This document shows positions 7,939 to 59,157 of a stretch of DNA of 64,000 bases, in pieces. The position numbers were made by a program, and so were the translations under genes. The DNA lies in NCBI GenBank assembly GCA_016181845.1, contig JACOYO010000005.1, positions 66,845 to 130,844 of the forward strand, read 5' to 3'. Every line of letters begins with the position of its first letter. The first letter of the stretch is position 1. Under the pieces are notes generated by a model, which worked only from the letters and a program-made list of their open reading frames with translations, made no database searches and had not been told where the DNA came from. Source of the DNA: Parcubacteria group bacterium (GTDB lineage: Bacteria > Patescibacteriota > Minisyncoccia > Phycocordibacterales > 21-14-all-47-15).

Positions 7939-8757
7939 TCATTCGGCTTTCGCATAGCCGAATAACAAACATTTTTTGCATGGGCCACACCGGAGCGCCT
8001 CGCTCTGTCCGAAAAAATCGGGCGGACATACCATGTGTTTTTGTTTAAGCGAAAGCGATTTCCACCACGGCGCATCGGTTGGTTGTTCCAAATCTCTTCC
8101 GCGCAATTCATGCGACGGGAAAATCACCGACCCTTTTGGTAAATCGGGAATCACGTCCCCTTCCGTAGCCATAAAACAAATGCGAAAACCGAATTGATTG
8201 TGGCACGTCATCGCTTCGTTGAAATTATCTCTGTCTGCAGAAAGATTCACGGCAATGTTCCGCAAACCATGAAGCGTTTCTGAAAAATGAAACGACCGCG
8301 TGTAAATCCAATGACGCACGTCGGGAGTTCTAATCACCACGGCGCGTATAAACCATGCGTACTCCATGGAAAAAATGTCGCCAGACACATGCCAGCGGAA
8401 ACCTCCTCTTTTGCAACGCGAAGCAATCCACTCGACGAAAGCAAGTATGGTTATGGCTGTTTCGTACCCGCAAGAGAGCACCTGATGAATTGCCGCGCTA
8501 TTGCGACGATACATCCTATACATTTCAGGTTCTGCATCCTCTAAGCGATTGACATAGCACACACTCTCGCATATCGGCGTCTTATGCGGACAATCCGTTT
8601 TGTGCAATAAAGAAAACGCATTTGCTGACGGTCGTTCAAAAGAGCCGTTTTCGGCTGTGATTTTGCCATTACCGTCAAACCAAAACACGCGTTCTCTGCC
8701 GCCGTACTGATAAGCCACCTCAAGCGAGCTTAAGACAAACTTCGTTTGATTAGCCAT
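7939..8757 (-). CDS. hypothetical Cys-rich protein (CPHKTPICESVC N-terminal cluster; C-terminal CPPD...CGPCKKC)
   Basis: 272-aa ORF with conserved-looking cysteine clusters at both ends; no family recognised with confidence. Confidence 0.5.
   Translation of the reverse strand: MANQTKFVLSSLEVAYQYGGRERVFWFDGNGKITAENGSFERPSANAFSLLHKTDCPHKTPICESVCYVNRLEDAEPEMYRMYRRNSAAIHQVLSCGYETAITILAFVEWIASRCKRGGFRWHVSGDIFSMEYAWFIRAVVIRTPDVRHWIYTRSFHFSETLHGLRNIAVNLSADRDNFNEAMTCHNQFGFRICFMATEGDVIPDLPKGSVIFPSHELRGRDLEQPTDAPWWKSLSLKQKHMVCPPDFFGQSEALRCGPCKKCLLFGYAKAE
7942..7962. repeat. 21-nt hairpin repeat ttcggctttcgcatagccgaa, copy 2 of 3 (overlaps the 3' end of the 272-aa gene)
   Basis: Exact repeat. Confidence 0.6.
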
Positions 8758-13645: not shown

Positions 13646-14317
13646 ATGGATAATAAAACTATTCGTTTTGAAATGAGAATTGATCCAGCACTGATTGTTC
13701 AAATAGATGGGTGGGCAAAAAAACGTGAGATCCCCCGCTCCGAAGCCGTAAGAGCATTAATTTCAAGGGGGCTGGGAATGGATATTAGTAAGGGAGAAAA
13801 ACTTATTCTCTCAACCTTAAGTAATATTGCGAACGAGTTGAAGTTAGAAAATACGAAAAGAGAAATCGATCTCATTGTAAAAGCACTATTTCACGGTAAA
13901 TCGTGGGCAATAGACTGGGAACATGAGTGGGTCAACACAGATGATGGACCTTATAAATATGTCGAAGAAACTATTAACATTCTTAGTATGTGGGATTATC
14001 TCTCACATATATACAAAAAATTACCTAAAAAAGATCGCGAAATGGTTGATGGCGCCTGTTCTTTTATGAAATGGGGAAAATTCCCAGGCTTTGATGGTAA
14101 TAACGAGCCACATTTTGGTATTGCCCGCTTTCTTATAGAAGACATGAAAAGATTTACCAACTTCGATCCCCAAAAAATTAATTCTCACTTTCCTGTAGTG
14201 GACAACTATCTGAGCATGTATTCAGAGTTCGATAAGCAACATTATAAAAATAGAAAACCCATCGGAGTGAGCGAATTAATAACCATTACAAAAAAATTCG
14301 AGATTTCTAACAATTAA
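13646..14317 (+). CDS. fusion of N-terminal ribbon-helix-helix (CopG-like) domain with a YfbU-family (UPF0304) domain
   Basis: N-terminus RFEMRIDPALIVQIDGWAKKREIPRSEAVRALISRGL is RHH-like; the C-terminus aligns by eye to E. coli YfbU (LILS...EET.I.I..M; G.FDG...G..RF; FD....SHFP blocks). Confidence 0.55.
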   Translation: MDNKTIRFEMRIDPALIVQIDGWAKKREIPRSEAVRALISRGLGMDISKGEKLILSTLSNIANELKLENTKREIDLIVKALFHGKSWAIDWEHEWVNTDDGPYKYVEETINILSMWDYLSHIYKKLPKKDREMVDGACSFMKWGKFPGFDGNNEPHFGIARFLIEDMKRFTNFDPQKINSHFPVVDNYLSMYSEFDKQHYKNRKPIGVSELITITKKFEISNN

Positions 14318-14958
14318 CTCGCTATTTCAAAAATCTTTCTTACTAATCCTGTCCGCGCATAAAACGCACGAGTAATAGGGCGACGCTCACCAGTTCGCGG
14401 ATTGATTCCGCCTGTTCCTTTTGTACGTGCCTGTATCCATTTGCCGTCTTTCCCAGTGAGAGCATCAAATCCTTCTTTGATCAATTTTGCGCGAATAAAA
14501 TCGTAGTCCGCTTTTATTTCCTTTATCAGCTCGTCATCCTCTGCAAAATCCAAACTCGTTACTTCCAAGAGCTTCGCGTTTTTTGCGTTTTGTCCGTTCC
14601 ACTCAACCGCACAGAAAACAATGGCTTTCAATTTAGCCCAAGCATGGCTCTCAAAAAAATCATGCTGTTTCAACTCTGCGGGATTGATCATTGTGATCGC
14701 CATTGTTTCTTTTGGCACAAGCTTGCCTTTTACTTTGTGAAAAGCAACTGACTTCAATTCATAAGTCAGTCCATTCGGTGCTTTTGATACATTATTTTGG
14801 AGCCCTGCTAAGCGTTCCAAAACAAGACCTTTCCAACCTTTGTTTTGCTTTCCAGTTTCGTATGTCGTAATGCCGTACTTTAAAGCCAGTGTTCGCAAAT
14901 CTTGCCCAATATACTTTTTTAAATTTTTTATCGCAATAGCGCGGGTTATGATTTTCAT
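14314..14958 (-). CDS. MutH/Sau3AI-family endonuclease (putative GATC-specific restriction endonuclease or nicking enzyme)
   Basis: KGWKGLVLERLAG, GLTYELKSV (E-x-K catalytic motif) and the C-terminal block WIQARTKG...ITRAFYARTGLVRKIF match remembered MutH blocks KGWIGVLLEIWLG, GVELKTIP, YLQIRPKA...LPRGFYLKKNF. Confidence 0.6.
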   Translation of the reverse strand: MKIITRAIAIKNLKKYIGQDLRTLALKYGITTYETGKQNKGWKGLVLERLAGLQNNVSKAPNGLTYELKSVAFHKVKGKLVPKETMAITMINPAELKQHDFFESHAWAKLKAIVFCAVEWNGQNAKNAKLLEVTSLDFAEDDELIKEIKADYDFIRAKLIKEGFDALTGKDGKWIQARTKGTGGINPRTGERRPITRAFYARTGLVRKIFEIAS

Positions 14959-15767
14959 ACTTTTGCTTTTTTATTTTTTAAATTTCGATCCAATTCCTCG
15001 AACCGCTTTATTGATATATCTAAAAACTTTTTTTCAAGATCAACCCCAATAAAATTTCTGCCAAATAAATGTGCGACAATCCCCGTCGTAGAACTTCCAG
15101 TGAACGGATCAATTATTAAATCACCTTTGTTTGTACTAGCAAGAACAATTCTTTTCAGCAAGTCCTCGGGTTTTTGCGTTGGATGTTTCCCAAATTTTTT
15201 TTCTATTGTTTTTGGAGTTCCTATTGACCAAACCGAACGCATTTGAAGCCCGGGCTTTTTTAATGCATCCTCTGGCCAAGTGCCATTTTTCATTAAATCA
15301 TAATTGAAAATATGTTTTGCTTTCTTGTCTTTTTTCGCCCAAACAAGTGTTTCGTGGCTTGCGGTGAAAAAACGGCAACTTAAATTTGGCGATGCGTTCG
15401 GTTTGAACCAAGCAACATCATTGAGAACATGAAATCCAGCAACCTGAAGCGCGAAGCCACATTGATAAATTGAGTGATAAGTTCCACTAATCCAAATTGT
15501 TCCACTTGGTTTCAGGACACGCCTAACTGCTTGTATCCAAGCAAGATGAAATTCAAAATCTTTTTTCAGCCCGTTACTTTTATCCCACGCTCCTTTATTA
15601 ACACTTACTCTCTGTCCAGCGTGGACAGTGAAGCCTCCATTTGAAAGCAAATACGGCGGATCCGCAAAAATCATATCAACCGAATTTTCAGGAAGCTCTC
15701 CTAACAAATTCAAACAGTCCGCTTGGTAAAGTTTAAACTTCGGTTTTTCGTAATATGGTTTTTGCAT
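14955..15767 (-). CDS. DNA N6-adenine/N4-cytosine methyltransferase, beta class (motif IV DPPY precedes motif I)
   Basis: IFADPPY near the N-terminus, DPFTGSSTTG near the C-terminus; 4-nt overlap with the endonuclease gene. Confidence 0.85.
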   Translation of the reverse strand: MQKPYYEKPKFKLYQADCLNLLGELPENSVDMIFADPPYLLSNGGFTVHAGQRVSVNKGAWDKSNGLKKDFEFHLAWIQAVRRVLKPSGTIWISGTYHSIYQCGFALQVAGFHVLNDVAWFKPNASPNLSCRFFTASHETLVWAKKDKKAKHIFNYDLMKNGTWPEDALKKPGLQMRSVWSIGTPKTIEKKFGKHPTQKPEDLLKRIVLASTNKGDLIIDPFTGSSTTGIVAHLFGRNFIGVDLEKKFLDISIKRFEELDRNLKNKKAKV

Positions 15768-15872
15768 AAAACTTTTTTCAATTCAAAAAATTAAAAACTT
15801 GACCGAATCCCTCCTCGCGTCAATAGACGCCACTTTTGAATAACTATGGAAACGCTATTCAAAAATGTCGTT

Positions 15873-15963
15873 ACGGAGAGGGAGGGATTCGAACCCTCGA
15901 TGAGGTTTTAAGGCCCCATAGCGGATTAGCAATCCGCCGCTTTCAGCCGCTCAGCCACCTCTC
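15873..15963 (-). tRNA. tRNA-Ser (anticodon GCU), 91 nt with long variable arm
   Basis: Manual fold: acceptor GGAGAGG/CCUCUCC, anticodon loop UUGCUAA, long variable arm, T-arm GAGGG-UUCGAAU-CCCUC. The 3' trailer contains GGAGGGAUUCGG, complementary to the tRNA 3' end, followed by a U-run (terminator). Confidence 0.85.
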
Positions 15964-15969
15964 CAAATG

Positions 15970-21468: not shown

Positions 21469-22221
21469 CTACTCAATCTTAAGTTGAATCGGAGGCACGT
21501 CTGCTATCCTGTAATCGGCAAAAGAAATCTGCTTGCCTCCTACCGGCTCAAGTCCATAAAACTTAAGGCCGAGCTCGCACACATGTGACTGAATGAAAAA
21601 CGATTCTCCCGTTTTTTTAACGAGCATGTCAGAAAATTGCCGCCCGGTCATTTCTTGATGGAAACACCGCTTTATCCCGTCACGGAGATGTTCTTCAACA
21701 ATTTCCTTTTTCCAACCAATCCTATGATACACCGCAATCGGATCAATCACGCGGAATTCTTTTTTGTGGCTTCGCGCGATAAATTTTCTTCCGTCATCCG
21801 TATTGACGGCTATGTCCATCTCAACCGCGTACGATGAGCGAATAGCAATAAGCTTGTCGCTGAACGGGTGTCTCAGAAACCCGATCGTCTCAATAACATA
21901 GGCTTCTCTTATTCCTCCGCGTTCCGGAACTACTACTAACAAGTTACCGGTAAAAGGTATCGCTAGAAATGCCGAAACGGCGATTAATATTCCAGCGGCA
22001 ACAGATAGAATACCGCTAAAAACATCTTTTTCGTTTGGCAAAAAGAATAACCCAATAAAAAAGAGTATTATTAACAAAGACGACGCAAAGAGAGGCTGGT
22101 GTGGAAATATTTGTGTCGGATTTCTGAATATAAAACCTATAAACACACTGCCAATCACCGCCATCAGAAATATCAATCCGGAAACAACGACCGCTATTTT
22201 GGCTTTCAACATTTCTATCAC
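21469..22221 (-). CDS. membrane protein, possibly SPFH/band-7-like C-terminal domain
   Basis: 250 aa; three N-terminal TM segments then a soluble domain; family call weak. Confidence 0.4.
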   Translation of the reverse strand: MIEMLKAKIAVVVSGLIFLMAVIGSVFIGFIFRNPTQIFPHQPLFASSLLIILFFIGLFFLPNEKDVFSGILSVAAGILIAVSAFLAIPFTGNLLVVVPERGGIREAYVIETIGFLRHPFSDKLIAIRSSYAVEMDIAVNTDDGRKFIARSHKKEFRVIDPIAVYHRIGWKKEIVEEHLRDGIKRCFHQEMTGRQFSDMLVKKTGESFFIQSHVCELGLKFYGLEPVGGKQISFADYRIADVPPIQLKIE

Positions 22222-23807
22222 CTCAATATAAGGTTGATTTTCAAAAAAATTCTAATTTGAATTAAAGCGTAAAAACATATTTTTGTCAAACCATCCACTT
22301 GCCCTACCATAAACCATGGGTTAGTATTTGAAGTACGCCAACAAAAAACCGCTCTTAGCTCAGTTGGTAGAGCGCTCGTCTTATACACGAGTGGTCCCAG
22401 GTTCGAGTCCTGGAGGGCGGATTCGTAACAAAGTGGAGAATCTGACCGAGCAAAGCGCCTGCGCGCTTTGCGGACAGGACGAGAAAAGGTTCTCCCATAT
22501 TTTTGAGGAGCATTGCTCCGAAAAAATGGGAAACCTGTACTGAACATGTAAGGTTCGAGTCCTGGAGGGCGGACATACCGCAGAGCTTCAATCGGGCTTT
22601 TCTTCGCGGCGGTGCGCGCCGGATAGTAGCCGAAGACGATGCCCACAAGCGCCGCAACACCCAATCCCAAAAATATTGCAAAAAACTGAAAACTAAATTG
22701 CCAATCCAGTCCGACAATCTGCGTGAGAATAATTGAGATGCCAAATGAAATTGTCGTACCGAGCGCAATCCCAACAATCCCACCAAGCAATGTGAGTATC
22801 GTCGCTTCAAGCAAAAACTGCGACAAAATATCTTTTTCGCGCGCGCCGATTGCTTTGCGCAATCCGATTTCACGCGTTCTTTCCGTAACCGACACTAGCA
22901 TGATATTCATGATGCCGATACCGCCGACAATCAAAGATATAGCCGCCATGGCCGTCAAAAAAAGCGTGAGTGTGCTTGTGATAACCCCGAGACGATTTGC
23001 AAGGTCCGCCTGCGTCTCAACAAAAAAGTCGTCTTTGTCGGGGTCGGTAATGTTGTGTGAGTTGCGGAGCGTTGTTTGCACATCGCGAACCGTACGCTCT
23101 ATTGATCCGTCGTTTGCCGCTTCAATGATAAACCTGTGGAAATATTTGATGCCGAAAATATACTGTTGCGCGGTTGTATACGGCACAATTGCCGCTTCAT
23201 CAAAATTGAAAAATGACACCTGCCCTTTTTTCGGCAATATGCCGATAACCCGAAAATTTTTGCCTTTGATTTTAATTTTTTCTCCGAGCGCCGATGCATC
23301 GCCAAACAATTCACTTTTTACTTTTGAGCCGATAATCACAACATCACGCTGACCCTTCACATCATCATAGTTAAAAAAGTTTCCTTCTTTCGGAAAGAGG
23401 TCAAAAATATCTCCTATGAGCGGGGACGCTCCGAAAATAGTCAGCCGATAGGTTTCGCTTCCGTATGCTCCAGTTTCCCCGCCGAATAAAATCGGCATGA
23501 TGCGTGCAAGGGTCGGCACATTCGTTTTTTTCTGCAAGAGCTCAAGGTCGCGTTCTTTCAGCGAATCGGAAAAAATCTGCGCCGCGTCTGCTGGGCCTTT
23601 CGGTTCCCTGCCCGGAATCACAATGATGGTTTTTGAACCAAGCCCCTGCACCTGGCTTACGATAAGCTGTTCGGCTCCTTTGCCCAAAGACATCACAACT
23701 ATAATGGCCGTAATGCCGATGACAATGCCAAGCATCGTGAGTGCCGAGCGCATTTTATTCGTTTTAAGCCCGAGAACGGCTGTTTTGAGAAGATGCGGAA
23801 ACGTCAT
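22218..23807 (-). CDS. ABC transporter permease, MacB/FtsX family; the ORF as it stands is extended ~118 codons beyond the usual C-terminus
   Basis: FtsX domain with 4 TM segments ending ...PARTAAKKSPIEALRYV; codon 413 onward is encoded by the duplicated tRNA 3' end, a 129-bp insert and the antisense of the tRNA gene, with no stop until 22218. Confidence 0.7.
   Translation of the reverse strand: MTFPHLLKTAVLGLKTNKMRSALTMLGIVIGITAIIVVMSLGKGAEQLIVSQVQGLGSKTIIVIPGREPKGPADAAQIFSDSLKERDLELLQKKTNVPTLARIMPILFGGETGAYGSETYRLTIFGASPLIGDIFDLFPKEGNFFNYDDVKGQRDVVIIGSKVKSELFGDASALGEKIKIKGKNFRVIGILPKKGQVSFFNFDEAAIVPYTTAQQYIFGIKYFHRFIIEAANDGSIERTVRDVQTTLRNSHNITDPDKDDFFVETQADLANRLGVITSTLTLFLTAMAAISLIVGGIGIMNIMLVSVTERTREIGLRKAIGAREKDILSQFLLEATILTLLGGIVGIALGTTISFGISIILTQIVGLDWQFSFQFFAIFLGLGVAALVGIVFGYYPARTAAKKSPIEALRYVRPPGLEPYMFSTGFPFFRSNAPQKYGRTFSRPVRKARRRFARSDSPLCYESALQDSNLGPLVYKTSALPTELRAVFCWRTSNTNPWFMVGQVDGLTKICFYALIQIRIFLKINLILR
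22349..22421 (+). tRNA. tRNA with anticodon UAU (would read AUA; tRNA-Ile2-like), 73 nt
   Basis: Manual cloverleaf: acceptor CCGCUCU/AGGGCGG (one G-U), D-arm GCUC/GAGC, anticodon stem CUCGU/ACGAG with loop CUUAUAC, T-arm CCAGG-UUCGAGU-CCUGG, discriminator A. Confidence 0.7.
22551..22573 (+). repeat. 23-nt direct repeat of the tRNA(UAU) 3' end (aggttcgagtcctggagggcgga; original at 22399-22421), 129 bp downstream
   Basis: Exact 23-nt identity ending at the discriminator base; att-core-like arrangement. Confidence 0.7.
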
Positions 23808-28892: not shown

Positions 28893-29299
28893 GGGGATGA
28901 TCGGCTTTGACAGTTGATTGGCCCTTGTCATGCGCAAAGCAAGCATGTTCGCTCATCTTGTAAATCCGCGCGAACAACCAATAGATGCAAATTCTATTTC
29001 AAAGCGAGTCGCATCGCCATTCGTGACGATAAACGGCTTCGCCTTTGCTCGAGCGTAATTAATCGCACGAGCCATCCGATACGCGGACTCCTGATAGGCG
29101 TTTAGGGTGTCATATACATCAGGATAGAAATAGCGGACGCTTCGCCGCGGTTTCAAAACCAAAGAAGCTCGGCCTGTACGTATTTCGTTTGCTTCCGACC
29201 GTACAGGCTCAAATTCACTTCGGTGAAACAAAGCAAACTATCTTTGTAGACACATCCGAGGAAATCATTTGGACCCGGGTTCGATTCCCGGCATCTCCA
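28893..29299 (+). ncRNA. ssrA: tmRNA (ssrA), ~407 nt
   Basis: Directly downstream of smpB. 5' end GGGGAUGAUCGGCUUUGACAG resembles the tmRNA 5' consensus; the 3' end has a tRNA-like T-arm CCCGGGUUCGAUUCCCGG and acceptor CAUCUCC-A pairing with 5' GGGGAUG. A candidate tag frame GCA AAU UCU ... GCU CGA GCG UAA (ANSISKRVASPFVTINGFAFARA) is uncertain. Confidence 0.7.
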
Positions 29300-29315
29300 T
29301 TCGTAAAAACATTAG

Positions 29316-29346
29316 CCTCGCTTTTAGCGGGGCTTTTGTTTTTTGA
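29316..29346 (+). terminator. rho-independent terminator after tmRNA (gcctcgc-tttta-gcggggc + TTTTGTTTTTT)
   Basis: Stem with one G-U pair plus a T-run. Confidence 0.5.
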
Positions 29347-29394
29347 ATGGAGATGAGCAAGACGCCTGCGCGTCTTGCGTCCGGGAATCGAAAA
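29346..29394. repeat. inverted copy of the tmRNA 3' end (gaatggagatg ... ccgggaatcgaa) split by a 25-nt hairpin caagacgcctgcgcgtcttg
   Basis: Reverse complement of ttcgattcccggcatctccattc, interrupted by the hairpin. Confidence 0.55.
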
Positions 29395-29469
29395 GTTTGA
29401 GCATATCGCGCGGAGTCCGCCCGTGGCGGACGAGCACGATGCGAAAACTGTACTGTTCCTGTAAGGAAA

Positions 29470-29486
29470 GATTCCCGGCATCTCCA
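29470..29486 (+). repeat. 17-nt direct repeat of the tmRNA 3' end (gattcccggcatctcca; original at 29283-29299)
   Basis: Exact repeat 170 bp downstream of the tmRNA end. Confidence 0.65.
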
Positions 29487-29504
29487 CCTCATTCGACTTT
29501 CTTA

Positions 29505-29525
29505 CTCGGCTTTCGCATAGCCGAA
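29505..29525. repeat. 21-nt hairpin repeat (c)tcggctttcgcatagccgaa, copy 3 of 3
   Basis: Matches 7889-7909 and 7942-7962. Confidence 0.6.
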
Positions 29526-29531
29526 TTTCCT

Positions 29532-29571
29532 TTGTCACCTATCCTTCGCTATAGCGAAAGATAGGTGACAA
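29532..29571. repeat. near-perfect 18-bp-arm palindrome ttgtcacctatccttcgc-tata-gcgaaagataggtgacaa
   Basis: Read directly; one mismatch between arms; possible protein-binding site or hairpin. Confidence 0.5.
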
Positions 29572-29597: not shown

Positions 29598-29626
29598 AGT
29601 CGGACATCCGATGTCCGACTTTTTTT
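29598..29626 (+). terminator. rho-independent terminator agtcggacatccgatgtccgact + T7
   Basis: Perfect 9-bp stem plus T-run. Confidence 0.6.
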
Positions 29627-35819: not shown

Positions 35820-38582
35820 TTATTTCCTATACTTTTTCATAATCTCCGCTTCCACTTCATTTCGGTCCCGCCCGTATTTTTGATACGAATGTTCTTTGAC
35901 CCGAGTGATTTGTTCTGATTGTCCAGCTTCAAACGATGCCGTTTCAATATTAAACGGTTTTGATGGCTGTCCATTCGCTAAAAGTTTCAGATATGCGTTT
36001 CGATTATCAAGTTTCATGATATCTTCCGCGGTAAACGTCGGCGCAAATTGCTTTGCCAGATATTCGGCGTCGTCTGCCCCCACGCGAAACACAGCAAGCG
36101 AACCGACGTTTCCAAAGACCGCATTTTTTATTTTTTCATCCAGCTGGGCGATAAATTGATTGGCAATCGTGAGCGAGAGCCGATACTTGCGCGCCTCCGA
36201 AAGAATCGTGGCAATCGAATCCGTGGTAATATTTTGAAACTCATCAATGTAGAGAAAGAAATCGGCCGGTTTCGAGCGAAGCACGTCAACACGCGACAGC
36301 GCCGCCATCAAAATCTTGCCGACGATAATCAATCCGATTAAATTGGAGTTGATATCGCCCAATCGCCCTTTTGATAAGTTTACGAGAAGTATTTTACGCT
36401 CGTCCATAATCTGCCTGAAGTTAAACGCCGAGTGCTGTTGCGCCACAATTGGCCGCATGATGTCATTTGCCAAAAAGACGTCAAACTTGCTCGTGATATA
36501 AGGCACAATATTGGCAAGCGCCCCTTCCCCGCCCGCCTTCTCGGCAATGTCCGTCCAAAACTGTGTGACGACCGGATTTTTTGAGCGTGAAAGTTTCAGC
36601 GCCCGAAATGCTGTGTCTGCAAGCACGCGCGACACGTCAAGAAGCGTTGAGCCGCTCTCGGGATCTTCAATCACGAGCATCGTGGCATTTCTAAAATACT
36701 GCTCAAACATCGGCCCCATTGATTCCGGTACCGCGCCGTACAATTTTTGAAAAATACTGAAGAGCTCATTGACCACGAATGTTTTCTGTTCAGGGAAACG
36801 GGCGTCATATTCAAGCATGTTAAGCCCCATCGGACGCGCCGTCGCCCCCGGGTCAAAATAGATGACATCGTTCATACGATGTTCCGGTATGCGAGAGAGC
36901 ACATCTTCAATATCAGAGCCATGCGGGTCAATCATGCACACCCCATTGCCAGCGACGATATCCTGCGCAATCATATTTTTTAGAAGCGTGGTTTTGCCGG
37001 TTCCTGTCTGTCCGATAACATAGAGATGCCGCATTCGGTCTTCATCCGCAAAATGAATGTCAGTTTCAATATTTCTATAACGATTTGACCCGAGCACCAC
37101 CCCTTCGCGCGAGAGCGTCATTGGCGCCGGAGCGCTCCCCGCTTTTGCTTCTTTCAATTCGCGTGATGTCGTTCCCGTAACCGGAAAATGAAAGAGCGTA
37201 GTCAATTCTTTGATGTTCAGCGGAAAATTATGTTCGTCTGAAAAAAGGCGGTATGAAAATCGGTGCAATAGGGCGCGAAGTACTTCTTTTTTTACCCGCT
37301 CAAACTTGATGCCGTTGCCGCGTGTTTCCGAAAATTGATTGAATGACGATTCAAGTTCGGAAAGAATATCTTTGGCGCGGCTTTCCGTGCCTGCCGACGC
37401 GATAATGCGGATATTGGCTCCCAAAATATGGCTTCCGATTTTTGCTTCAATATGTTTAATCGCTTCTTCATCAATTTTGTGAGGTTCAAGCGGGACCGCG
37501 TTGCCATGAATATCTTTTTTCGGCAAGTCGCCGCCAAACACAAGCTCTTTAACCGCCTTCCCGAACCCGCCGGCAAACCCTTCCGGCATATCAACCGCTT
37601 TTTTGACCGGCACTCCTTTTTTTACTTTGTCTAAAATAAACGAGTAGCGTTTAATGTAATAATCGGCAATCGGCGCAAGCACTATCTGCACCGCGGCTCC
37701 TTCGCCGGTTTTTTTAATTTTTGAAAATGAATTGAGTAGCGCCGAAAGCGGGTCGCTGTCAAACGCTTCGTATGTCTTGAGCGAAAGCGCCGGAGAAAAA
37801 GCTGGCGCCGCGTACGACGCGGCAGACGCGCCGTTTTCAACAAAAATGTTATAGTCGTTTGGATTTTCTTTGAGCGTGGCGCGCGGGAACGCCGCCAAAA
37901 GCTGTTTCTCAAACAAATCAGCTTTCGTATCGGGTACACCGGCATAAAAAATCATATCCTCGCTTTCTCCGGAAATAGCGAGCTCAAGCGTAAAAGACCG
38001 CTTCCATTTTTCCGCGCTCTTTTCGTCTGTGTCTGCCACCGAAAGCATGCCTGCATAAAATTGCGCCATCGTGGTCACCATTTCTTTGAATTGTTTCTCT
38101 GATTCTTCCGGCGCCGATTGCGGAAGCGTGATTTCAAAAAGCTTCATGTGGAGCGCGCGCAAAAGCTCTTCTCGATTGACGCCATCGGTGTATCCTGCTT
38201 TGATATACTGAACCAAAAAACGATGGAAGTCGTCGTCAATGTGCGGATTGGAGAGCCGCTCCACTACAGAGAGCGCGTTTTTTATGCCATTTTCAAGCAT
38301 GATTCCAAAGAGTTCATTCATTTGCTCATCGTGCGATTCGGGAGCCAAATCAAGCGCGATTTTTTCGGCTTCATACGCTTTCATCGCATGCCCAGACGCC
38401 AGCACTTCTTCGGATTTCTTTTTGCCATATTCGCGCACCGGCAAAACGGCCGCGTGCTCGCGTTCATGCGAGGCCGCTTCTGCATCAAGTTCTTTCTCGT
38501 GCCGCGCTATTTCACGGCGCAAAAAAACCACTTCTTCTTCCGGAGTTTTGAATTTTGGCATTTCACCTTGAAATGTTTCCAT
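35820..38582 (-). CDS. large P-loop ATPase with VirD4/TraD/TrwB-like (type IV coupling protein, TraG-D_C-type) C-terminal half and ~440-aa coiled-coil-rich N-terminal region of unknown function
   Basis: GQTGTGKTTLLKN Walker A followed by MIDPHGS; LYIDEFQNI Walker B-like; RKYRLSLTIANQ...L motifs of coupling-protein family. Confidence 0.55.
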   Translation of the reverse strand: METFQGEMPKFKTPEEEVVFLRREIARHEKELDAEAASHEREHAAVLPVREYGKKKSEEVLASGHAMKAYEAEKIALDLAPESHDEQMNELFGIMLENGIKNALSVVERLSNPHIDDDFHRFLVQYIKAGYTDGVNREELLRALHMKLFEITLPQSAPEESEKQFKEMVTTMAQFYAGMLSVADTDEKSAEKWKRSFTLELAISGESEDMIFYAGVPDTKADLFEKQLLAAFPRATLKENPNDYNIFVENGASAASYAAPAFSPALSLKTYEAFDSDPLSALLNSFSKIKKTGEGAAVQIVLAPIADYYIKRYSFILDKVKKGVPVKKAVDMPEGFAGGFGKAVKELVFGGDLPKKDIHGNAVPLEPHKIDEEAIKHIEAKIGSHILGANIRIIASAGTESRAKDILSELESSFNQFSETRGNGIKFERVKKEVLRALLHRFSYRLFSDEHNFPLNIKELTTLFHFPVTGTTSRELKEAKAGSAPAPMTLSREGVVLGSNRYRNIETDIHFADEDRMRHLYVIGQTGTGKTTLLKNMIAQDIVAGNGVCMIDPHGSDIEDVLSRIPEHRMNDVIYFDPGATARPMGLNMLEYDARFPEQKTFVVNELFSIFQKLYGAVPESMGPMFEQYFRNATMLVIEDPESGSTLLDVSRVLADTAFRALKLSRSKNPVVTQFWTDIAEKAGGEGALANIVPYITSKFDVFLANDIMRPIVAQQHSAFNFRQIMDERKILLVNLSKGRLGDINSNLIGLIIVGKILMAALSRVDVLRSKPADFFLYIDEFQNITTDSIATILSEARKYRLSLTIANQFIAQLDEKIKNAVFGNVGSLAVFRVGADDAEYLAKQFAPTFTAEDIMKLDNRNAYLKLLANGQPSKPFNIETASFEAGQSEQITRVKEHSYQKYGRDRNEVEAEIMKKYRK

Positions 38583-58946: not shown

Positions 58947-59157
58947 CTCGCAAAGTTATAAAAAGAACAATCAGCCATTACCGGTACCCCTATTTACAGG
59001 GTAACAAACGTGTCAAGTACATTTTCCTGCACGCAAAGCGCCGGCGCGTTTTGCTCTCGCCGCATAAAAAGTGATTGAGAGGAGCTCGTTTATCCACAGT
59101 TGACACAAAAATTGGTTAAGAGTAATATTTAAGTGTTTATGCAAGTACTTAACTAAT

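Follow-up and report, generated by a model that had tools for sequence, protein, structure and literature searches.

Integrase-type elements, i.e., prophages, ICEs, genomic islands, the tycheposons of Prochlorococcus and the ssrA islands of Dehalococcoides, insert at the 3' ends of tRNA and tmRNA genes, where a direct repeat of the 3' segment flanks the insert and the host gene stays intact. Repeated insertion of tycheposons and ssrA islands leads to tandem arrays with partial tRNA copies and cargo (bioRxiv 10.1101/2020.12.28.424599; PMC3146451). Such elements are kilobases long and bring their own tyrosine or serine recombinase. Integron cassettes are small, hold one small cargo gene or none, end in a recombination module and are arrayed at one platform, with the recombinase encoded outside the cassette. 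Their attC sites are imperfect inverted repeats that fold in one strand, and the structure is conserved beyond the stem sequence (PMC7439510, PMC3053210). In the IMEX CTX-phi (PMC3442271), two inverted target-like sites that lie tens of nucleotides apart fold in one strand into a duplex mimicking the target, and a host enzyme swaps one strand pair between the single-stranded element DNA and the duplex chromosome. PATEs and RAYT-mobilised REPINs are protein-less, hairpin-rich and strand-specific elements with conserved hairpins at both ends, which are moved in trans by a single-copy enzyme into 4-5-nt targets. In IS608, the target and the element ends are recognized by base pairing with short guide segments beside hairpins. 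Group I introns interrupt the host gene and contain the P3-P9 catalytic core. They are common in CPR tRNAs, where they occupy position 35/36 in the anticodon loop (PMC13011429).

Here we describe two small inserts that follow the genes for tRNA-Ile(UAU) and tmRNA in a 64,000-nt stretch of a Parcubacteria (CPR) chromosome, in the following called the window. Like integrase-type elements, these cassettes and their relatives lie at tRNA and tmRNA 3' ends, are flanked by a direct repeat of an intact host gene, and occur in tandem arrays with partial tRNA copies and cargo. In contrast to those elements, they measure 130-190 bp and encode no protein, their three-hairpin fold is conserved and covaries, they contain a reverse-complement copy of the target inside, and one family serves at least 17 tRNA isotypes and tmRNA. 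With integron cassettes they share the small size, the cargo of one small gene or none, the terminal recombination module, the arrays at one platform and a recombinase that would be encoded outside the cassette. Their modules are inverted repeats folding in one strand and kept by compensation, as in attC. Unlike integrons, they have no intI/attI platform, any tRNA or tmRNA 3' end serving as such, and the RYYYAAC/GTTRRRY core sites of attC are absent. Their stem is instead a copy of the target, made of host tRNA sequence (GTTCGAR..), and their loops and junctions are strongly sequence-conserved. The predicted pairing of the inverted and direct host copies resembles the inverted target-like sites of CTX-phi; there the target is dif, the enzyme XerC/D and the element a 7-kb filamentous phage, whereas the target here is a tRNA or tmRNA 3' end and no phage, Xer-type site or single-stranded DNA is evident. 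The cassettes are protein-less, hairpin-rich and strand-specific like PATEs and REPINs. Those elements have no target duplication or long direct repeats and are not tRNA-specific, whereas the cassettes have repeats of 17-23 nt and an unconserved left end.

Two related cassettes in the window

The original prediction was that homologous modules follow the tRNA and the tmRNA, each ending in a repeat of the host 3' end. A repeat search located both repeats, exact over 23 nt at tRNA-Ile (22399-22421 and 22551-22573, spacing 152) and over 17 nt at tmRNA (29283-29299 and 29470-29486, spacing 187; 22 nt with three mismatches). Both host genes score as full-length with ARAGORN and Rfam, and SmpB, encoded upstream of tmRNA, was identified by homology search and a Pfam match. 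In what follows, X1 is the host 3' end, X2 its direct copy at the end of the cassette, and X' the reverse-complement copy, which is split into X'a and X'b. The features are the following, all on the + strand.

22349..22421, +: tRNA-Ile(UAU), host gene without encoded CCA (ARAGORN; Rfam tRNA, 69.6 bits)
22399..22421, +: X1 of tRNA-Ile, first copy of the direct repeat (exact 23-nt repeat)
22422..22573, +: whole 152-bp tRNA-Ile cassette from left spacer to X2, an extent that presumes insertion directly 3' of the discriminator (empty site in relative L121, tandem pair in relative L122, covariance model)
22441..22447, +: X'a, degenerate reverse complement of the acceptor 3' strand, TCTGACC, pairing with GGGCGGA (sequence, RNA fold, family-wide X'a specificity)
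22450..22471, +: hairpin 1, GCAAAGCGC-CTGC-GCGCTTTGC, between X'a and X'b (fold, covariation)
22475..22485, +: X'b, reverse complement of the T-stem 3' strand and T loop, CAGGACGAGAA (sequence, fold)
22487..22536, +: hairpin 2 of type A, AGGTT CTCCCATATTTTTGAG..GAAAAAATGGGA AACCT (fold; covariation in helices 3-5)
22537..22556, +: conserved junction GTAC and hairpin 3, GAAC-ATGTAAG-GTTC, abutting X2 (motif search; covariation in helix 6)
22551..22573, +: X2, exact second copy of the tRNA 3' end (23-nt repeat)
28893..29299, +: tmRNA (ssrA), host gene downstream of smpB (ARAGORN; Rfam, 132.4 bits; SmpB Pfam match)
29283..29299, +: X1 of tmRNA, 3' end, first repeat copy (exact 17-nt repeat)
29300..29486, +: whole 187-bp tmRNA cassette (covariance model; different cassette sets in relatives)
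29305..29343, +: terminator-like hairpin with A-run and T-run (inverted repeats, fold)
29348..29355, +: X'a, reverse complement of the acceptor 3' strand and discriminator, TGGAGATG (inverted repeat, fold)
29358..29377, +: hairpin 1, CAAGACGC-CTGC-GCGTCTTG (motif search, fold)
29381..29392, +: X'b, reverse complement of the T loop and T-stem 3' strand, CCGGGAATCGAA (12-nt inverted repeat, 100% complementary)
29394..29449, +: hairpin 2 of type B, AGTTT GAGCATATCGCGCGGAG..GAGCACGATGCG AAACT (fold, covariation)
29450..29469, +: junction GTAC and hairpin 3 with loop CTGTAAG (motif search, fold)
29470..29486, +: X2, second copy of the tmRNA 3' end (17-nt repeat)

The proposed kinship of the two inserts is borne out by a mean column identity of 72% in their alignment and by their match to one covariance model. 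This model, built from 36 family members including both window modules, gives 119.8 bits for the tRNA-Ile module and 118.6 bits for the tmRNA module, with no other match in the window at E<=10. The predicted hairpin caaRRcgc-CTGC-gcgYYttg is present in both (22451-22470 and 29358-29377), as is the terminal motif CTGTACTGNNCNTGTAAGG, which has two matches in the window against 0.13 expected (0/100 shuffles). A third sequence resembling hairpin 1 is found at 59034-59053, isolated and with no tRNA nearby. The string gcggac..acgag, listed earlier as a further shared feature, has to be dropped as such: it occupies non-homologous positions, X'b in the tRNA module and the apex of hairpin 2 in the tmRNA module. 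The inverted, interrupted copy of the tmRNA 3' end is real (29348-29355 and 29381-29392) but not peculiar to tmRNA, the tRNA-Ile module having a more degenerate one (22441-22447 and 22475-22485).

Neither cassette (152 and 187 bp) contains a real ORF. X' and X2 are 65 and 77 nt apart in the two modules, and the fold z-scores are -3.2 and -8.2. In the tmRNA cassette, the terminator-like hairpin forms one long palindrome together with X1 and X'a. As judged from GC skew, neither of the two modules lies on the lagging-strand template, which known ssDNA transposons usually favour.

Fold and host matching

Across the family, the order from 5' to 3' is a variable left part, X', a conserved two-hairpin core and X2. 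The left part has no conserved end sequence; it is often terminator-like and sometimes holds cargo genes, among which we recognized, from translated sequences and not by family search, a hicAB-like pair, a PCD-like gene and small ORFs. In at least 31/75 modules, X' is directly preceded by a terminator-like hairpin and its T-run, and such a hairpin may often stand in for the displaced terminator. X' is the reverse complement of the last ~20 nt of the host gene, usually split by a small hairpin, and X2 is a direct copy of the same ~20 nt. In all core types the last hairpin adjoins position 56/57 of the copied T loop.

Both X' and X2 match the particular host gene. X'a is complementary at 8/8 positions to its own tRNA in 21/75 modules, compared with 1/5164 pairings with other isotypes, and X'b matches its own host at 8/9 positions or better in 72% of modules versus 5%. 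In the window tRNA-Ile cassette, X' has two changes that compensate lineage-specific substitutions of the tRNA; one, a T-to-C in X'b, offsets an A-to-G in the tRNA T loop that is seen in comparison with L121 and L122. Several genomes (e.g., L031, L035, L050 and L064) keep an encoded CCA in X2 and not in X1. In a test for X2 copies matching another tRNA, the non-matching ones proved mostly truncated or degenerate and not foreign.

The cassette fold is kept by compensatory change. In the family alignment, compensatory changes were found at 29/37 pairs, including 9/9 pairs of hairpin 1. Paired cells amount to 91.6% versus 67.7% in shuffles, and double-change cells number 317 versus 99 in shuffles (0/500 reach 317) and 57-79 in slid controls. 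Counts of G-U versus A-C on the MAFFT alignment are unreliable owing to indels in X2, and strand preference was assessed from the folding energy of the top and bottom strands instead: the tRNA-sense (top) strand is the more stable one in 63/74 modules (p = 3e-9). Pairing of X' with X2 is present in the predicted folds of the window modules and in the family consensus.

Distribution, gain and loss

The original prediction of a family of small elements targeting the 3' ends of tRNA-like genes could be examined in other genomes, and both the spread of the motif and the 3'-end duplicates support it. The 23-nt module-end motif matched at least 116 stretches in a collection of species-representative genomes, against ~17 by our own estimate under uniform base composition; apart from four or five, they come from CPR genomes, so that more than 110 CPR stretches carry the motif. 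For 77 of ~120 motif copies, a tRNA (17 isotypes) or tmRNA is found on the same strand 23-171 nt upstream, and nearly all copies adjoin a duplicated 3' end of such a gene. A scan of 2.9 million viral contigs gave 0 matches. In the CPR loci analysed, 55% of 166 tRNA and tmRNA genes are followed by an inverted copy of their own T-loop/T-stem segment, versus 3% with such a copy upstream and 7% in a cross-control, and 41% are followed by a direct copy, versus 1% upstream. Direct repeats with an intact host gene were found in at least 40 family members, and at one locus (L020) all four tRNAs within 8 kb carry a module. One core is found beside many different tRNAs, and hairpin-2 cores taken from separate CPR classes and from unlike tRNA isotypes agree to 96-97%. 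An Rfam 15 search with both modules and nine array-bearing loci, at the gathering threshold and at E<=10, returned tRNA and tmRNA only. We found no description of these cassettes in the literature searched, and a large family of protein-less 130-190-bp cassettes after CPR tRNA and tmRNA genes has apparently not been described so far.

At both window loci the presence and number of cassettes vary among close relatives. The tRNA-Ile locus has no cassette in L121, whose permease is 95% identical; it holds one in the window and in L120, and two in tandem in L122. The site in L121 is clean: native flank and the stop codon of the permease come immediately after tRNA-Ile. One window cassette coincides with loss of the permease stop codon. 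At the tmRNA locus, a cassette of kind b is present in the window, kinds a and b in tandem in L001, kind a in L003 and a third type in L002. Each gain or loss is that of a precise unit with the X repeats as its borders, and cassettes stack in tandem, arrays of mixed type included.

Partner enzymes

That no integrase is present was part of the original prediction, and none was detected: among ~50 ORFs of the window, no integrase, integron integrase or other recombinase, transposase or reverse transcriptase was found. When 1908 ORFs from the 115 loci (8 kb each) were clustered all against all, no recurrent partner protein emerged near the modules. The ORF families that do recur were rejected as partners, being either housekeeping genes syntenic with particular tRNAs (CCA-adding enzyme and YraN at tRNA-Pro, L19 at tRNA-Leu) or spurious antisense ORFs running through the module. 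TnpA, TnpB, RAYT and IS110-type genes were found neither in the window nor recurrently near modules, and no HUH transposase (TnpA or RAYT) was seen within the 64 kb of this genome and the 8-kb blocks of the others. A crude motif screen for recombinases gave a single serine recombinase, truncated (L028), and two Xer-like ORFs at a distance of more than 4 kb; none of these is recurrent. For two modules without a nearby tRNA (L110 and L119), a Pfam search of the upstream genes yielded no integrase.

Discussion

On balance, both modules probably belong to a superfamily that extends across CPR and consists of non-autonomous insertion cassettes, which encode no protein and are specific for tRNA and tmRNA 3' ends. 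From comparative patterns only, we infer that the cassettes would be mobile. A cassette may travel as a small single-stranded or circular intermediate, of ssDNA or RNA, in which X' would pair with X and thereby rebuild a duplex copy of the tRNA-gene end or guide the element to it. Strands would be exchanged within the block from T loop to 3' end by a recombinase whose gene lies elsewhere in the genome, and this exchange would leave the tRNA intact again and provide the next cassette with a new target. The best reading of the folded strand is that it mimics the target or guides the cassette there. The repeat masks the crossover point, which could be in the T loop or immediately 3' of the discriminator. 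RecA, or slippage during replication, acting between the 17-23-nt repeats could also account for precise loss and for tandem duplication, and neither would require a dedicated enzyme.

The original prediction had left the choice between scars of integrative elements and small structured elements open, and the results favour the latter. If the modules were attL/attR scars of integrase-carrying prophages or genomic islands whose interior was later deleted, the direct repeats from T loop to 3' end would be the classic signature of integrase insertion at tRNA and tmRNA genes; tycheposons with their partial tRNA copies and tandem arrays offer a precedent (bioRxiv 10.1101/2020.12.28.424599), as does the genomic island at ssrA in Dehalococcoides (PMC3146451), and the window itself has a tRNA-Ser gene followed by a low-GC restriction-modification island. 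However, independent deletions would not yield one 130-nt covarying three-hairpin structure at more than 100 sites. The compensatory changes by which tandem copies differ show selection on the fold itself, which speaks against scars, as do the lack of a full-length integrase-carrying relative among the 115 loci and of the motif among viral contigs. With this covarying fold and one core at many tRNAs, we regard an origin as scars of larger elements as very unlikely. Slightly less improbable, though still distinctly unlikely, are miniature derivatives of a single-strand or RNA-guided transposon (IS200/IS605 HUH, PATE- or REPIN-like, or bridge-RNA/omega-RNA-like), with X' and X2 as guides and insertion in the T loop after GTTC, bringing along a replacement tRNA 3' end. 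A size of 150-190 nt suits a single-stranded and not a duplex circle, folding depends on the strand, X'a and X'b resemble guides in lying on either side of a hairpin with complementarity to the target, and both the abutment of the last hairpin on T-loop position 56/57 and the CCA retained in X2 are consistent with such insertion. The enzyme genes that this origin calls for were found neither in the window nor recurrently near modules, however, no known family leaves direct repeats of 17-23 nt, the left end is without conserved sequence, and the Rfam models for IS605-orfB and HEARO RNA gave no match. Two further candidates were rejected: a DDE-type MITE, as X' is internal and not terminal, the left terminus is variable and the 17-23-nt repeat is gene-specific instead of a short fixed TSD; and a group I intron, as the modules lie outside complete genes, are 130-190 nt long and have no Rfam match at E<=10.

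A role of the modules as functional structured RNAs tied to the tRNA, e.g., a tRNA-like mimic, an antisense or processing element or a small ribozyme, would dispense with mobile DNA altogether; the RNA would be transcribed with or beside the tRNA, and selection would match the X'/X2 stem. The strong covariation in all helices, the better folding of the sense strand and the way X' tracks tRNA substitutions agree with this, and the core sequence is conserved across CPR classes, where near-identical cores could reflect strong host-level selection on a functional RNA and not transfer. In modelled folds, X'a, hairpin, X'b and X2 can be drawn as a mimic of the acceptor and T arms, and a GGAG..CGAG tandem-GA motif, kink-turn-like by eye only, recurs in hairpin 2 of type B and in the type 2 core. 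Yet modules are found at only about one third to one half of the tRNAs in carrier genomes, one site has zero, one or two copies in close relatives, including a clean empty site, and tandem or mixed arrays with cargo between units suit insertion better. Moreover, at least 31/75 modules have the terminator-like hairpin and T-run directly before X', with no room for a promoter, and no Rfam family matches. We therefore consider this role rather unlikely as a full account; it is compatible with mobility, and the mobile intermediate could itself be RNA.

Within the insertion-cassette reading that we prefer, the antisense copy, the sense copy and the conserved core together suggest target choice by base pairing. 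In its most specific form, insertion would be guided by nucleic acid: antisense X' and sense X2 would pick the tRNA or tmRNA 3' end by pairing, the core would recruit a small trans-acting enzyme or be catalytic, and the cassette could be re-aimed at any tRNA. We put this forward tentatively, as a rather unlikely possibility. In a variant of it, insertion would take place within the T loop, making the element a removable intron-like or splint-guided unit. If target choice by pairing holds, a compact re-targetable integration system would join the short list of those known.

For annotation, the cassettes account for partial-tRNA calls and spurious ORFs, and they may also account for contig breaks beside tRNAs in CPR assemblies. 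For the biology of the group, they would mean that tRNA and tmRNA 3' ends in reduced CPR genomes are docking platforms for tiny structured protein-less cassettes, sometimes with cargo, a route of genome plasticity previously not noted for CPR.

Cassettes at two host genes

Two genes of the window, each identified by both ARAGORN and Rfam, are followed by a segment ending in a second copy of the gene's own 3' end:

22349-22421, tRNA-Ile, anticodon UAU
22399-22421 and 22551-22573, exact direct repeat of 23 nt, spacing 152
28893-29299, tmRNA
29283-29299 and 29470-29486, exact direct repeat of 17 nt, spacing 187

The repeat search thus reproduced the copies reported in the original prediction, and the tmRNA repeat extends to 22 nt when three mismatches are permitted. 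The proposed kinship of the two inserts also held, with a mean column identity of 72% in the alignment, a common hairpin 1 (caaRRcgc-CTGC-gcgYYttg) and a common terminal motif CTGTACTGNNCNTGTAAGG, found in the 64-kb window only at the two cassette ends (0.13 expected). The motif gcggac..acgag, also thought to be shared, lies at non-homologous positions in the two. An inverted copy of the host 3' end is present in the tmRNA cassette as predicted, but the tRNA-Ile cassette has one too, in more degenerate form. Isoleucine tRNAs with anticodon UAU are uncommon in bacteria; the anticodon of this gene is kept in a close relative (L121, 2166-2238).

Anatomy and fold

From the host gene onward, a cassette consists of a variable left part, X'a, hairpin 1, X'b, hairpin 2, an invariant GTAC junction, hairpin 3 and finally X2, which repeats the host 3' end directly. 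X'a is reverse-complementary to the discriminator and the acceptor 3' strand, and X'b to the T loop and the 3' strand of the T stem. Hairpin 2 is long, with closing stem AGGTT/AACCT, and hairpin 3 is short, with loop CTGTAAG. The left part of the tmRNA cassette is an A-run/GC-hairpin/T-run resembling an intrinsic terminator, and in the repeat search it made up a single long palindrome together with X'a and the 3' end of the tmRNA.

The inverted segments X' are specific for their own host gene. X'a was 8/8 complementary to its own tRNA in 21 of 75 cassettes but in only 1 of 5164 pairings across isotypes, and X'b matched its own host at 8 or more of 9 positions in 72% of cassettes, versus 5%. 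An X2 copied from a foreign tRNA was considered and rejected; non-matching X2 copies are mostly truncated or decayed instead.

Single-strand folds of the two window cassettes were far more stable than shuffled controls (z = -3.2 and -8.2), and both are predicted to pair X' with X2. In an alignment of 36 sequences, compensatory changes occurred in 29 of 37 consensus pairs, and 91.6% of cells were paired (67.7% in shuffles). Double-change cells numbered 317 versus 99 in shuffles, a value reached in 0 of 500 shuffles, and only 57-79 when partners were slid. The tRNA-sense strand was more stable than its complement in 63 of 74 cassettes (mean difference -3.7 kcal/mol, p = 3e-9), which ties the fold to a single strand, either RNA or single-stranded DNA.

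Because the antisense strand of the cassettes is free of stop codons, ORF listing yields spurious "proteins" (..STGFPFFR..KIWENLFES..), which group into one family, e.g., in L100, L108, L065, L044, L040 and L059 (minus strand) and at 29215-29538 of the window.

Family size and distribution

A scan of one genome per species with GAAAMCTGTACWGNNNNTGTAAG gave matches in at least 116 genome stretches, where about 17 would arise by chance according to our own estimate by hand, assuming uniform base composition. All but four or five of the matches listed are Patescibacteria; by our count about 37 are labelled Saccharibacteria and the others Paceibacterota or Parcubacteria lineages. No match was found in 2.9 million viral contigs. 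Among the matches listed, 77 of about 120 motif copies lie 23-171 nt 3' of a same-strand tRNA or tmRNA, and after about 40 of them comes a near-exact copy, 13-24 nt long, of the 3' end of that gene. Most other copies are truncated by the end of their locus, or their host is a tmRNA or intron-containing tRNA missed by ARAGORN. The hosts are tRNAs for Gly, Pro, Val, Leu, Gln, Arg, Glu, Ser, Tyr, Asn, His, Lys, Trp, Ala, Thr, Asp and Ile, and tmRNA. In L095 (about 2050-2350, motif orientation), a tRNA-Asn missed by ARAGORN carries a group-I-intron-like insert (GTTCAGAGACTA ... GATATAGTCC), and this interrupted gene has a cassette downstream as well.

A covariance model built from 36 family members scored the window cassettes at 119.8 and 118.6 bits and found nothing else in the window. 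On the loci fetched from other genomes it detected further diverged copies, and those checked adjoin tRNAs; L020 has a cassette at each of four tRNAs lying within 8 kb. A family-agnostic repeat count around 166 tRNA/tmRNA genes of CPR loci gave an inverted copy of the gene's own T-loop/T-stem segment within 400 nt downstream for 55%, versus 3% upstream and 7% in the cross-control, and a direct copy for 41% downstream versus 1% upstream. Of the tRNAs other than those for which loci were fetched, 35% were occupied as well.

The X'...core...X2 architecture recurs with at least two further core types, which often share an array with type 1 and match no Rfam family:

Core type 2: GAAAGACGGAG, hairpin, CGAGTCGGGGTCGCG, hairpin, CGTGACC (L057, L068, L077, L033, L052, L006, L079, L002)
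Core type 3: L020, L007, L037, L117
Core type 1 variant: GAAAGACTTTTC, hairpin, GAAAAGTACC, with hairpin-3 loop ATGTAGT

Gain, loss and cargo

At tRNA and tmRNA genes, discrete units bounded by host 3'-end copies are gained and lost. The MacB permease beside tRNA-Ile has 412 aa in almost all of 120 homologues listed, and the tRNA-Ile and tmRNA loci differ in cassette content:

L121 (permease 95% identical to the window): clean empty site, where tRNA-Ile runs directly into ...TTATTTTTTACTCAT, the stop codon of the permease
L120 (100%): one cassette, then native flank
L122 (85%): two tandem cassettes, X' a perfect complement of that tRNA
tmRNA locus, cassette types a and b: window, b; L001, a then b; L003, a; L002, another core

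The window tRNA-Ile has two derived substitutions, both present in X2, and its X' carries two matching compensatory changes plus some decay. Some hairpin-2 cores found at different isotypes, and in different CPR classes, share 96-97% identity, although their X', hairpin 1 and X2 are not alike.

In the window, the MacB/FtsX permease (22218-23807, minus strand) lacks its stop codon at junction 22573/22574. Compared to the 100%-identical, 412-aa permease locus L120, 11 nt (AGTGAGAATAA) are missing between ...CGGTATG and X2, and the ORF therefore extends to 529 aa through the cassette and antisense tRNA-Ile. Either an assembly error or a genuine deletion at the edge of the cassette may be the cause.

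Arrays can hold cargo between or before units, as in L048 (tRNA-Trp), L067 (tRNA-Ser), L017 (tRNA-Asn) and L006 (tmRNA). Read from translated sequences rather than by family search, the cargo appears to include a hicB/hicA-like toxin-antitoxin pair, a pterin-4a-carbinolamine-dehydratase (PCD)-like gene, an ORF of 146 aa that has a promoter and terminator of its own, and a membrane-like ORF of 117 aa. No protein family recurs among the neighbouring ORFs of the fetched loci, and the cassettes have no enzyme of their own.

Genomic context

The window is an ordinary chromosomal stretch from a metagenome-assembled genome of Parcubacteria (CPR/Patescibacteria). A homology search matched its SmpB at 100% identity to a protein of a 136-kb Parcubacteria contig, and the housekeeping genes of the window include FtsH, SmpB, a MacB-type ABC exporter, RecG, PFOR, SecY with ribosomal proteins, GroEL, RNase J and type IV pilus genes. 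No integrase, transposase or reverse transcriptase was present among about 50 window ORFs of at least 150 aa scanned. A phage-type GP88 domain protein and a VirD4/TraG-like coupling protein (7939-8757 and 35820-38582) lie in the otherwise housekeeping region.

A low-GC (0.39) block at a tRNA-Ser 3' end looks like a restriction-modification islet:

15873-15965, minus strand, tRNA-Ser(GCU); region with block, 13646-15965
14955-15767, N6/N4 DNA methylase
14314-14958, MutH/Sau3AI-like endonuclease
YfbU-domain gene, in the same block

A degenerate inverted copy of the tRNA-Ser 3' end, GAGGAGGGATTCG at about 15800-15812, follows a small hairpin; a second direct copy was not found at the block. A lone intergenic hairpin at 59034-59053, CAAAGCGCCGGCGCGTTTTG, is almost identical to hairpin 1, with no tRNA or other cassette parts nearby. 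Just 3' of the tmRNA cassette lie a near-perfect (95%) 40-nt palindrome, TTGTCACCTATCCTTCGCTA/TAGCGAAAGATAGGTGACAA (29532-29571), and a separate terminator-like hairpin (29598-29620).

Nature of the cassettes

The cassettes stack in tandem, keep a strand-specific fold and carry host-matched antisense and sense segments; we infer that they are non-autonomous site-specific insertion elements. Covariation and sequence conservation would also agree with a functional RNA linked to the tRNA, but such an RNA is hard to reconcile with tRNAs that are only partly occupied, with the clean empty site, with arrays that are tandem or mixed, with cargo genes and with terminators upstream. A fold that is conserved and compensated at more than 100 sites cannot be explained by scars of ordinary prophages or islands. 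The guide-like X' and the constant junction at T-loop position 56/57 make an IS200/IS605-like or RNA-guided system attractive; however, no enzyme of such a system was seen in the window or recurrently near the cassettes, and to our knowledge the known families leave no long repeats.

The cassettes' size of 150-190 nt and their one-strand fold suggest a single-stranded intermediate, in which X' would pair with X and either mimic the duplex target or guide the element to it. At least 31 of 75 cassettes have a terminator-like hairpin immediately 5' of X', which speaks against their being co-transcribed with the tRNA and slightly favours a role at the DNA level. The identity block of the cassettes extends from the T loop to the discriminator, a block that many T-loop-targeting integrases reportedly use. 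Recombination within it would give an intact tRNA and a fresh target, which would account for the arrays; the crossover would lie either at T loop 56/57 or directly after the discriminator.

In behaviour the cassettes resemble tycheposons, ssrA islands and other known integrative elements of tRNA/tmRNA genes, but they are one to two orders of magnitude smaller and lack the defining integrase. Their fold and the proposed X'/X pairing recall integron attC sites (PMC7439510, PMC3053210) and the folded attP of CTX-phi (PMC3442271), whereas core sites and platform differ. Neither the literature searched nor Rfam 15, which has no matching family, describes the cassettes themselves, and there is a minority chance that they represent a new, base-pairing-guided mechanism of insertion.
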